Under the pieces are notes generated by a model. That model was not told the origin of the DNA. It worked only from the letters and a program-made list of their open reading frames with translations, and searched no databases. This document shows, piece by piece, positions 3,230 through 6,430 of a DNA stretch of 64,000 nucleotides. Location of the stretch: the NCBI GenBank assembly GCA_041697335.1, contig JBGUGD010000001.1:96001-160000 (forward strand), read 5' to 3'. The DNA comes from Vampirovibrionaceae bacterium NZW_1234. GTDB lineage: Bacteria > Cyanobacteriota > Vampirovibrionia > Vampirovibrionales > JAGQHJ01. Made by a program: the position numbers and the translations under genes. Each line of letters starts with the position of its first letter. Within the stretch, counting starts at the first letter, position 1.

Positions 3230-3407
3230 GGTGTCTCCCCCCTGTTTTGAGCACTTCGCTGTCCAGACTGTCTCTCTCGGACGTTCTGGTCTTTGATTAC
3301 TTTACCCTACCTGGCGGGGGTGGGTGTATTCACTGAAAGACGGATCACCCCGGAGGGTTCTTTTTCCTATTCTTTTCTATATAGGATGGCGGCGATGTCC
3401 CGACACG

Positions 3408-3441
3408 AAAAAAATCCCTGTGATGTTGCCGTCACAGGGAT
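3408..3441 (-). terminator. Intrinsic terminator following conserved core copy 1
   Basis: ATCCCTGTGA-N8-TCACAGGGAT stem (3414-3441) with an upstream A-run on +. Confidence 0.7.
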
Positions 3442-3583
3442 AGGGATTTTTCCCTACAATCGTACATTGGCTATGGGTTAAGTTAAAGCGAAAATGAGTA
3501 GTAACTGCTACTTAGCCCCAAGATTGCAGGGAAACAACATAGCTCGTGTATTGCCGCCCCAAAGTAGGGGGCGGGTTTCGGTT

Positions 3584-3763
3584 CTAAGCTTCCGTCCAGA
3601 GGCGCTGGTTGCTGTTGGGTGCGCCAGTCAAAAGGTTACCGCTGATCCCACCACCAAAGCTGCTGGCCGTGTCATTGGAGACCCCGTTAAAGCTATTGCT
3701 TGGAGGGAAGGTGGTTTTCATTACGTTTGCTGAACCGCCCATTGCGCTCATACTGCATGCCAT
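3584..3763 (-). CDS. 59-aa Ser/Gly/Asn-rich small protein (not in the ORF track)
   Basis: Translated by hand: MACSMSAMGGSANVMKTTFPPSNSFNGVSNDTASSFGGGISGNLLTGAPNSNQRLWTEA*. AAGGAG lies 7 nt upstream of the ATG and a GC hairpin follows the stop. Confidence 0.65.
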   Translation of the reverse strand: MACSMSAMGGSANVMKTTFPPSNSFNGVSNDTASSFGGGISGNLLTGAPNSNQRLWTEA

Positions 3764-4007
3764 TGGTAGACTCCTTTTCTTGTTTCCTACTAACCTAACT
3801 GAAACGTTATATTCTTATAATAATGAATTGTTGAAACAAGAAGTGTCTTCTGGCCTACAAATTTAAAAAGAAAATAAAAAAACGTGGTGGCGTGGGTTGC
3901 ATCTTTGCCCGAAAAGCCTCAAGGCATGGGCCATTTGCCTATTGTTACGGTTTCTGGAAGTGAACATTTATGCCTGTAATTTTCCAGGTGCCACAGGGGG
4001 GCTGGAC

Positions 4008-4121
4008 AAAAAAGAAAAACCCTATGGAAGTCATAGGGTTAACAATCGTACATTGGCTATGGATAAGTCGTTAAGAGTAAGATCGATTTAGCGTGTTTTC
4101 TGTGAGAGTAGAGTTTCGATA
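4008..4121 (-). ncRNA. Candidate sibling sRNA, copy 2 (ends approximate)
   Basis: Conserved upstream block with CATAAT, core at 4042-4073, terminator stem AACCCTATG/CATAGGGTT plus U-tail. Confidence 0.6.
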
Positions 4122-4473
4122 CTTTTATTATGTCAAATTGATGTGTTGCTTTCTGTCGGGTAGCCAACAAATTTGTTCAGCGGACTCAAATTCGTCTTCG
4201 GAGTTTATCCGAAGCGTCTGAAACCCTTTTTAGATCTGGGTTTGAGGTGGTTTACATTTCGCAATCATCCTGCTCTCCAAGCGCGTTCCTCTAAAGGACG
4301 GACAAAAAAAAGAAACCCTATGGTGAGCATAGGGCGAGACAATCGTACATTGGCTATGGATAAGTCGTTATGAGAGAGAGGTTTAGAGTTTTGGTCTGAA
4401 GAGATGTGTTGAGTTTCGATACTTTTATTATGTCAAATTGATGTGTTACTTTCTGTCGGGTAGCTGACAAATT
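4111..4473. repeat. 63-bp direct repeat pair (4111-4173 and 4411-4473), putative duplicated sRNA promoter
   Basis: 60/63 identical by hand alignment, offset exactly 300 nt. Confidence 0.9.
4304..4421 (-). ncRNA. Candidate sibling sRNA, copy 3 (ends approximate)
   Basis: Same layout as copy 2; core at 4339-4370; same CCCTATG/CATAGGG stem with a different loop. Confidence 0.6.
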
Positions 4474-4588
4474 CGACGGACTCCTCGGGTAATCCTGAAA
4501 AAACCGCCTAAATGCTCTCCACGAGAGGCAAAAAGGCGGTTTACAAAAGTTAAAGATTGAAGGCTTACAGCGAAATCAAGCCCGTCTG

Positions 4589-5773
4589 TTATTTGAAATA
4601 GGCGCTGACTTGCTTGTCTTCAGCATAACAGCTCCCGTTCCAGCGATAGACATAGATCGGGTGGTAAGGGTCTTTGTCAAACTGGCGAACCACAATTTCC
4701 ATCTTGCCGTCGCCATCAATGTCTTCGGTAATATGGGGGCCTTTGTGGGATTTCAGTTCCCCGATCACCTGGTTTTTCCCGTTGAGAATACGAACCTCAT
4801 AGGGGGCGTTGGGCGTGCCGGTTAAAAAGAAATTGATGGAATCGGTCGTGCCGTCCTGATCCAAATCCAGCGATTTACTGGTTTTCAGTTGGTTCCAGTT
4901 GACGGGTGTCGAACTGAAGGAGCATGTCTGCGCAACTTCCGGGGGACGAGATGTCGCGGTTGTTGTACTCTGGTCCGACTCTACCGTGTTGCCATCAGCC
5001 ATGGACAAGGCCATCAGCGCACTATTGGGGCTGGATGACGTCGCACCGTAGGGAACATAAATGGTCGTCACGTCTTCATTAATTAAGCTGCTATAAGCTT
5101 CATAAGGCTTCAGTCCTTCCAAAATGCGCACATAGCTGGGCCATACACCGGGTTTCATATCATCGCGGTTAAAAATCAGGGCATCTTTCAGCTTGTAGCC
5201 CACATCCATCTTGCGGGTGGTCATGGCATCCGGCGGCGCGTTTTCAAAGATAATGTCCGTATCGACCTGGGCCAAGCCATAGGCCAGGCTGGTATAGGGG
5301 GAGCCGATTTTATCGTTGGCTTTTCTCAGGAAGAAAAGGCCGTTCTTATTGGCTTCCATCACCAGTTGGGCGTATCCATAGTCGAAAAACTTGATGGGGT
5401 CATTTTCATTGGTCAAATAGCGGGCTTTCAAAGCCTTCATCAGCTTTGCACGCTCTTCGGGAATCTGGCCATAGGCTGCATAGGCCCGTCGAAGGGTCTC
5501 CATATGCAGGAGCAGCGAATCGGTCGACGTCATAAACTCATAGGTTCCGTCTGCCGTTTGGACAGCCTGGTCCAGGCCTTCGGCTTGGGGGACACTGGAC
5601 ACTTCCAACGGAACTGTTCTAAGCAGCATGGGCTTTTCAGTAACCGTGGTTGACGTTGCTTCCAGTGCGACATCTTCAGCCTTGCCGGGTGCCAGGAGGG
5701 CTGTTGTTAATGTTAGCGCCAGCATGGAGGCAAAGGTGGTTTGCTTCATCCAACTCAGTGACCGGTTGTCCAT
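4589..5773 (-). CDS. Exported protein with helical region and C-terminal FG-GAP/VCBS-like Ca-binding loops
   Basis: GAGGAG RBS before ATG 5773; hydrophobic signal segment ending GKA; DLDQDGTTDSI and DIDGDGKMEIVV motifs. Confidence 0.75.
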   Translation of the reverse strand: MDNRSLSWMKQTTFASMLALTLTTALLAPGKAEDVALEATSTTVTEKPMLLRTVPLEVSSVPQAEGLDQAVQTADGTYEFMTSTDSLLLHMETLRRAYAAYGQIPEERAKLMKALKARYLTNENDPIKFFDYGYAQLVMEANKNGLFFLRKANDKIGSPYTSLAYGLAQVDTDIIFENAPPDAMTTRKMDVGYKLKDALIFNRDDMKPGVWPSYVRILEGLKPYEAYSSLINEDVTTIYVPYGATSSSPNSALMALSMADGNTVESDQSTTTATSRPPEVAQTCSFSSTPVNWNQLKTSKSLDLDQDGTTDSINFFLTGTPNAPYEVRILNGKNQVIGELKSHKGPHITEDIDGDGKMEIVVRQFDKDPYHPIYVYRWNGSCYAEDKQVSAYFK

Positions 5774-6430
5774 AGAACACACTCCTCTAAAATCGCTTGC
5801 TTTTGGACTTACATGGCCCCATATCACCATATCGGGGCAGATTTGATTTTCTTTATCATGGCCTCTCTCTATATATAGAATAAAGGGAGGTCATTTGTCT
5901 GAAAGTCATCCGATCTCAATTATAAGGAAAAGCCTCAAATCGGGGGACGGGGGCGTAACGATCTTCAATGACGAGGTCGTTGGCAAGGAGGTTCCGATAG
6001 GGGGAATTTCCCCGACTCCGAACCGGCTTCACCGGGGAGACTGATCGAAGCCTTCATGGGGCGCCCTCTGCCATGGGCTGAGGACAGGAAAGTACCGCTA
6101 GACAAAGGATTTGTTTTCTGGCACAATAAACCAGCCTCGCCATACCCAACCCGATCGGGAGTGACCCCTGATCCGGAACTGCGATGAGACCGGGCTCGGT
6201 TTTTGCCCTCAAGAACCAAAGATGCGCCCCGCGCTGTGGTCGCCCACAGAAATCATAACGATGGTCTTGATCCTGTTTTTTGTTTTGGTTATGGTGTTGG
6301 TTCACACTGTATGGCACGGCGAATTTCGGTCGCTCGCCACACCAGTTACGAAAACGTAAGAAGCTACAGAGTCAAAACGTAACGAACACGGTACGAAATA
6401 AGTAAAGAAAGCTGAGAAAGTACAGAAAGC

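Follow-up and report, generated by a model that had tools for sequence, protein, structure and literature searches.

The window analysed here, a stretch of 64,000 nt from a 3.70-Mb genome that is 94.75% complete, contains on its minus strand three short, related units that follow a gene encoding an FG-GAP-repeat protein (Table 1). A terminator assigned to this gene (z −4.3; an equally good fold in none of 200 shuffles) is predicted to separate unit 3 from the FG-GAP mRNA. Also in the window, at 2161-2493, lies a 110-aa ORF that starts MGFAASQAR and has no Pfam match; we take it to encode a protein type typical of the host lineage. The nearest relative of the FG-GAP-repeat protein is 59% identical, the names of its homologues include Vampirovibrio sp., and no photosynthetic reaction-centre gene was found in the host genome. 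The metagenome runs that match the stretch are labelled hot-spring or microbial-mat. Our reading is that the host belongs to an uncultured lineage of Vampirovibrionia with no closely related genome sequenced; we know of no culture of it. Because short contigs from eight of the 13 public runs listed, all of them DNA and none RNA, cover copies 2 and 3 as well as the intervening stretch nearly without differences, these copies are not an assembly artefact, although some of the runs may be the source sample of the assembly; none of the public-run pieces listed covers the core of copy 1. The eight runs represent the same population and hold no informative variation. Loci elsewhere in the host genome (G000) are given below as contig:position, and gene starts and the intergenic mask come from a crude ORF caller.

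Table 1. Features of the three units and of the preceding terminator, in window coordinates and in the order of minus-strand transcription.
Feature	Position	Strand	Details	Basis
Intrinsic terminator predicted for the FG-GAP-repeat gene upstream (4589-5830)	4499..4542	−		hairpin and U run
Unit 3, predicted activator site	4454..4469	−	consensus TGTCR-N6-YGACA; centre −41.5	
Unit 3, −10 box	4427..4432	−	CATAAT, 21 nt past the site, TG-preceded (extended −10-like); predicted +1 at 4420	
Unit 3, predicted RNA copy 3	4303..4420	−	~118 nt; shared 32-nt block 4370-4339, terminator 4335-4315	
Invariant 21-nt core, copy 3	4339..4359	−	RNA CCAUAGCCAAUGUACGAUUGU	exact repeat
Unit 2, predicted activator site	4154..4169	−	TGTT-N8-GACA, one step off consensus; centre −41.5	
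Unit 2, −10 box	4127..4132	−	CATAAT; predicted +1 at 4120	
Unit 2, predicted RNA copy 2	4006..4120	−	~115 nt; shared 32-nt block 4073-4042, terminator 4040-4018	
Invariant 21-nt core, copy 2	4042..4062	−		exact repeat
Unit 1, predicted activator site	3844..3859	−	TGTA-N8-GACA, weakest of the three; centre −41.5	
Unit 1, −10 box	3817..3822	−	TATTAT; predicted +1 at 3810	
Unit 1, unannotated 59-codon ORF	3584..3763	−	starts MACSMSAMGG; AGGAG 7 nt upstream	sequence
Unit 1, GC-rich 7-bp hairpin	3554..3574	−	directly past the ORF stop codon, without U run	
Unit 1, 13-nt pairing segment	3522..3534	−	copy 1 only; pairs with 3461-3449	predicted fold
Invariant 21-nt core, copy 1	3456..3476	−	within predicted 3′ UTR	exact repeat
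Unit 1, predicted terminator	3406..3441	−	stem 3441-3414 and U run; compensatory changes relative to the other units	

The preliminary description of this stretch had reported a 21-mer in three places, and the three occurrences are indeed exact (none of 100 shuffles held any match). Across the 3.70-Mb genome these are the sole three places with up to three mismatches, and one extra place appears at four. The gaps between the copies measure 297 and 586 nt. Covariance model R2 retrieves the three units at E ≤ 2e−12 and no fourth in the genome. At least two highly related predicted RNA genes in one genome, as is characteristic of sibling sRNAs, are present, and by sequence pattern each copy also has a separate promoter and an intrinsic terminator. 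Outside the ORF mask, local triple 21-mers occur at two other places, C2:202870 and C8:175990, with periods of 140 and 243 nt.

Between copies 2 and 3, the identity around the core extends over 32 of 32 positions, as had been described. The nearly identical upstream block with CATAAT, previously given as 60/63, corresponds to a promoter and 5′ block with 60 of 64 identical positions, and the middle is divergent as stated (26 of 42 columns identical). The linker and terminator agree at 30 of 39 positions and the flanks at 25 of 63 and 28 of 59. Compared with the middle, the core (Fisher, P = 3e−5) and the promoter (Fisher, P = 7e−5) are significantly better conserved, the segments having been drawn after inspection of the alignment. 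All 21 core bases are retained in copy 1, whose promoter, having drifted, matches that of unit 2 at 32 of 55 positions (ungapped). To judge by these sequences, the conservation between copies 2 and 3 appears to be a selection-like pattern.

The promoters of the three units are homologous, and each contains a palindrome of the CRP/FNR type (TGTCR-N6-YGACA, CooA-like) with its centre at −41.5, a common feature that goes beyond the preliminary description. On the minus strand, each unit shows the order TGT(C/T/A)-N8-GACA, 21 nt, a −10 hexamer, six bases and an A after T. Two separate starts had been proposed near 4121 and 4421, and two are predicted here, each displaced by one base, to 4120 and 4420. 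The activator site and the −10 box are kept better than the intervening spacer in the three units. A ranking matrix made of six sites from two other genera, in which the outer TGTC/GACA is shared by construction and the inner letters are independent, places the sites of units 3, 2 and 1 at ranks 6, 24 and 142 of 3.7 million positions; the top seven are all intergenic, and the sites of units 2 and 1 rank 10th and 22nd among intergenic sites. The unit 3 site is also among the four strict palindromes of the genome. From the homology between the unit 1 promoter and its two counterparts, the three units would descend from one cassette, and for the same reason the promoters do not count as independent observations. 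A TTGACA within the shared block was rejected as a −35 box, since no −10 box lies 16 to 18 nt away on the same strand.

Beside each core there is a terminator-like hairpin in minus-strand orientation, in agreement with the earlier claim, and the 8-bp stem is homologous among the units while the loops differ, as had been noted. All 24 cells of this stem are paired across the three units, and two pairs are altered on both sides; among shuffles, 50 of 500 match this degree of pairing and double change, as only three sequences are compared. Plus-strand RNAs were rejected, because the U runs, −10 boxes and activator sites are all oriented on the minus strand. The geometry of activator site, −10 box and terminator favours the proposed arrangement, in which two RNAs of about 115 nt have promoters of their own and a further copy lies in a 3′ UTR. 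That the units are real regulated transcripts seems to us quite probable.

The placement of copy 1 in a 3′ UTR gains support from a short upstream ORF that has a strong ribosome-binding site. The coding score of this 59-codon ORF (0.21) is borderline: 5.8% of 4,518 stop-free stretches between genes reach it, and 33% of the starts of long genes lie below it. The ORF has no Pfam match and no convincing homologue in 48 genomes; its best Atlas value is 0.78, and its structure model has a pLDDT of 57. We consider it probably a real gene that belongs to no family. The position of copy 1, after the ORF stop and before the terminator, fits a 3′ UTR-derived sRNA as far as the borderline coding score of the ORF allows. 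The hairpin directly past the stop codon is possibly a 5′ guard or a processing mark of the 3′ UTR. In the predicted fold of copy 1, the pairing segment 3522..3534 covers the last 6 nt of the core, and the first 15 are mostly looped.

The palindrome extends well beyond this locus. TGTCR-N6-YGACA occurs at 13 intergenic positions (unit 3 included; mask from the crude ORF caller) and 9 coding positions in the genome; ten alternative spacers average 2.5 and 12.2. Seven of the 12 intergenic palindromes outside the locus, which were picked without a −10 criterion, have a −10-like hexamer at exactly 21 nt, compared with 0 to 4 of 12 at fifteen other spacings. The combined pattern of palindrome, spacing and −10 box has 10 occurrences in the genome and none in the reversed control. 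These motif tests are partly circular, as the search patterns were drawn from the promoters described here, and 8 of the 10 sites in relatives were retrieved with the 21-nt spacing as a search requirement. TGTCR-N6-YGACA is a real motif in the host genome.

Three genes of the CRP/FNR family score above the Pfam cut-off in the host genome. One of them, at C15:46701-47390 (hereafter C15), has a palindrome 70 nt downstream, ahead of thioredoxin and DsbD/CcdA genes. C15-type CRP genes are carried by 3 of the 49 genomes of the order, with orthologues 52 to 63% identical in 2 of the other 48, and none was found in the further genomes of a 401-genome sample of the class. In the two other carriers, which belong to two other genera, sites likewise flank the C15-type CRP gene and a thioredoxin/DsbD operon, and in one of them palindromes precede DUF3179, AhpC-like and bufferin-like genes. 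Strict sites number 8 in the three carriers and 7 in the other 46 genomes, as opposed to 2 and 12 for the reversed pattern; the strict pattern was drawn from the compared genomes themselves. Most, not all, of the strict sites in the carriers flank the C15-type CRP gene and its thioredoxin/DsbD neighbours. A “KLWYL” N-terminus is conserved in the C15 protein and its orthologues, and homologues at 43 to 50% identity bear Sericytochromatia and Blackallbacteria names. A search for the locus of a 74%-identical CRP homologue was blank. The best relatives of the C15 protein with solved structures are general CRP/NtcA proteins, CooA ranking lower, and the protein falls under every NCBIfam cut-off listed; for NtcA it reaches 72.2 bits, in comparison to a cut-off of 244.95. 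The NtcA box is GTA-N8-TAC, from which TGTC-N8-GACA in the trio differs.

The likeness to the CooA operator is closer. In an excerpt of PMC545781, the 16-bp CooA consensus is TGTCGGCNNGCCGACA, which is equal to the sites flanking C15-type CRP genes, and one site in genome G028 is identical, letter for letter, to the Desulfovibrio desulfuricans CooA site given there. The neighbouring genes differ: near these sites they are thioredoxin, DsbD/CcdA, DUF3179 and bufferin-type genes, in the CooA regulon CO dehydrogenase. No coo gene was found among the annotated neighbours of the palindromes.

Additional loci suggest what else this regulon might contain. In the host, a palindrome precedes a bufferin-like cluster (C16:29297-32820) of a CsoR-family gene, a Cys-rich secreted precursor, MNIO (PF05114), DUF2063 and an AhpC/TSA protein; another lies upstream of an unannotated, metallothionein-like, Cys-rich 88-aa ORF with a ribosome-binding site (C21:16272 onward), and a third, at C29:213309 on the minus strand, upstream of a histidine kinase/response regulator pair. 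The first 13 nt of the transcript predicted from C29:213309 are identical to the sequence just ahead of the copy 1 core, which may be chance. In genomes G034, G016 and G001, a second CRP type, absent from the host genome, adjoins TGTCATC-N2-GATGACA sites, and in G016 it lies directly upstream of an MNIO/DUF2063/YceI cluster. In Caulobacter, according to an excerpt of PMC11626156, bufferin clusters belong to the copper-stress regulon and are under the sigma factor SigF; our observations suggest that bufferin-like genes in this order are under CRP-type rather than ECF-sigma control. By guilt by association, we infer that the C15 protein binds the three sites, and the signal would be envelope thiol or copper stress, as judged from part of the regulon. 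Several other top-ranked sites of the genome precede orphan genes, and the “thiol/copper” label is therefore drawn from part of the regulon only.

Two further places resemble RNA genes under the same motif. At C30:1282-1165 (minus strand), a candidate fourth RNA consists of a site, a −10 box, about 113 gene-free nucleotides and a 12-bp terminator. Its start resembles that of copy 2 (local score, P = 0.048 against shuffles, P = 0.013 against intergenic DNA, both post hoc); a near copy of the pre-core block is present and the core is absent. It has no Rfam match and no homologue in 48 genomes, and was not syntenic in the four checked. At C29:207199-207445 (plus strand), a second candidate, unrelated in sequence to the trio, has a strong site and TATGAT; behind these come about 190 bases that are structured and contain no gene, and then a U-run terminator.

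The sequence family had not been recognized before, and our searches agree: positions 3250-4600 have no Rfam match at E ≤ 10, the single match at gathering score in the whole window being a tRNA (Rfam 15), and the units belong to no Rfam 15 family, including Qrr, NsiR1, csRNA and LhrC. The exact 21-mer has no occurrence in GTDB contigs, and none of 40 relatives contains the core with up to three mismatches. The synteny of the FG-GAP gene is lost in all four same-family genomes, and the best core match over 31 loci is 15 of 21. In the 48 other genomes of the order, covariance model R2 gives only matches of E ≥ 0.048, whose scores, in the 10 alignments listed of 12 loci, come mostly from the terminator or U run; in context, one match is a gene 3′ end with a terminator and another an antisense coding stretch. 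Ten metagenome matches to an 18-mer, none followed by a terminator, and five viral-contig matches to a 16-mer were set aside as chance, as was the resemblance of the core to the CRISPR repeat of the genome (11 of 21 in the best register, by eye). This absence of homologues is uninformative, because even the nearest flanking protein is only 59% identical. Outside the supplements and subscription papers, the literature searched contained no description of the trio, nor of any sRNA in Vampirovibrionia, Melainabacteria or Vampirovibrio. Neither Hfq nor ProQ was found in the 94.75%-complete genome, with an Hfq profile that also missed a cyanobacterial control.

Few G residues precede the core in the predicted RNAs (5 of 58 and 3 of 61 bases), and this part is predicted to fold weakly. 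Within the core, the 5′ half CCAUAGCCAAUG holds an anti-AUG triplet and is predicted to be more open than the 3′ half, whose last 6 nt should be paired at 37°C in each of the three contexts, copy 1 showing the firmest pairing. Neither the repeated GGA in loops of CsrB/RsmZ-type sponges nor a GGA in the core was found. Target prediction, proposed in the preliminary description, was carried out as three scans of about 3,000 start regions each with a crude scan of our own, and its outcome is divided: the 32-mer exceeds the controls only at k = 11 and before correction, and the core does not. For the 32-nt block, five genes have an 11-nt perfect match in the start region, in comparison to means of 0.7 to 1.2 (P = 0.004 to 0.013, uncorrected for three queries and five k values). 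The best duplex of the core (−24.2 kcal/mol) is equalled or beaten by 7 of 25 shuffles, and its perfect matches in start regions at k of 11 to 12 have P values of 0.055 to 0.17. After correction for accessibility, 44% of 150 controls do as well as the core and 39% of 100 as well as the 32-mer.

The top core target in both energy scans, statistically unsupported, is the gene of a glutamate-synthase-like FMN protein (C13:21065), in which 12 perfect pairs with the core span the AUG. Other leads are aroC, a caspase-like paralogue pair (C34:176910 and 177813) and an isochorismatase-domain gene; the start regions of both C34 paralogues can pair with the core 5′ half. The paralogues are adjacent (C34:176095-177813) and have an N-terminal weak caspase-domain match below the cut-off. 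Elsewhere in the genome the core can form no helix longer than 15 nt, G-U pairs allowed. An invariant stretch of 21 nt is also longer than a seed needs, which we count against base pairing. In streptococci, RNAs predicted from a site, a −10 box and a terminator proved to be expressed, with the anti-AUG unpaired (excerpt of PMC3091779).

Several known systems share parts of this anatomy, as described in excerpts of the papers cited. The csRNAs of Streptococcus, under CiaR (PMC3091779, PMC4211561), are, as predicted for the trio, several siblings with one activator, own terminators and tandem copies, and with a conserved unpaired stretch that holds an anti-AUG triplet; they work without Hfq, and no Hfq was found here. 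However, csRNAs use CiaR direct repeats instead of a CRP/FNR-type palindrome, and the trio lacks their 5′ stem-loop, a conserved anti-Shine-Dalgarno run in the core and a match in Rfam; one of its siblings lies in an mRNA 3′ UTR, and it occurs in one lineage only. LhrC1-5 of Listeria, under LisRK (PMC4132741), are also multicopy, measure 111 to 114 nt compared with the predicted ~115 to 118 nt of the trio, have similarly C/U-rich single-stranded parts and depend on a stress regulator, as is predicted here; they act without Hfq. The LhrC copies are almost identical and have redundant CU-rich sites, whereas the C/U-rich part of the trio is variable, its core is not CU-rich, and it has no Rfam match. 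Among cyanobacteria, which judging from named homologues belong to the same phylum as the host, the NsiR1 array (PMC9045159) comprises tandem, individually promoted copies, as predicted for the trio, but these are ~60 nt long, number 12 and have DIF1 promoters under HetR. NsiR4 (PMC6316151) has an NtcA site at −41.5, the CRP-family geometry that the trio shares. The trio is best filed as a new lineage-restricted family within sibling sRNAs, which are already known as a kind.

Because this anatomy is csRNA- and LhrC-like, we favour repression by base pairing. Each of three homologous units would be switched on by one CRP/FNR-family activator at −41.5 and would end at its own terminator, two giving stand-alone RNAs of ~115 nt and one a short mRNA with the core in its 3′ UTR. 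The core 5′ half would pair over start codons and block translation, without Hfq or via another chaperone. The units would have arisen by tandem duplication of the entire promoter-RNA-terminator cassette. An activator that turns on repair genes would thereby use RNAs to turn others off, and the trio would be the repressing arm of a thiol/copper-stress-like regulon. We lean, if only slightly, towards this model in full.

The same units could instead carry the core as a protein-binding element, a 3′ UTR signal on the small-ORF mRNA, of which the stand-alone RNAs would be copies serving as decoys or carriers. None of the 21 positions varies, the predicted-paired half included, a small CAAU/AUUG hairpin can form, the target scans fail, and a protein site has also been proposed for the conserved csRNA motif (excerpt of PMC3091779). 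Yet the energy of this hairpin is just −0.9 kcal/mol, with an equally good fold in 48 of 200 shuffles, the element is absent from every other 3′ UTR in the genome, and there is no CsrA-type GGA motif. We regard a protein-binding core as possible but unlikely.

It is improbable, in our view, that the units are leftovers of tandem duplication, kept alike by recent gene conversion and maybe transcribed, with no RNA function. Conservation outside one lineage is nil, copies 2 and 3 share 94% identity in their promoter blocks, and the genome contains two other local triple 21-mers outside the ORF mask, all of which such an origin would accommodate. Gene conversion, however, would have to skip the middle twice and touch only 21 nt of copy 1; double changes preserve the terminator stems, whose loops differ, and the activator site and −10 box are kept better than the spacer. 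The absence of homologues, moreover, says little when the nearest flanking protein is 59% identical. A core that acts as DNA (a CAAT-N5-ATTG operator, an integration or repeat scar) or as a tiny peptide (AUG-UAC-GAU-UGU) is very improbable: the dyad and an in-frame AUG are present, but there is no fourth copy near any promoter, the core always lies directly before the terminator, the AUG lacks a ribosome-binding site ahead of it and the reading frames of the copies diverge after four codons, the 297- and 586-nt gaps hold no recognizable mobile-element gene and far exceed CRISPR spacer length, and the CRISPR array of the genome does not match.

The trio likely represents sister regulatory RNAs of a new family, as the sequence patterns suggest. 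A bolder, rather doubtful extension is that sRNA genes are caught here emerging from an mRNA 3′ UTR, within an undescribed CRP-family thiol/copper-stress regulon. A stress-induced cassette of promoter, small ORF, 3′ UTR element and terminator would have been duplicated, and two copies would have shed the coding part to become free RNAs with graded sites (TGTC, TGTT, TGTA); the trio, joined by one or two distal RNA candidates, would form the non-coding arm of the regulon under a CooA-type operator. The reach of these proposals is one lineage, with targets that are predicted only. If true, they would provide a regulator-linked sRNA family with exact predicted starts for the non-photosynthetic sister group of cyanobacteria. 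They also point to an unstudied CRP/FNR clade that apparently runs thioredoxin/DsbD and bufferin-type genes via a CooA-like operator. With 3′ UTR and stand-alone forms side by side behind homologous promoters, the locus would be a natural test case for the origin of sRNA genes.
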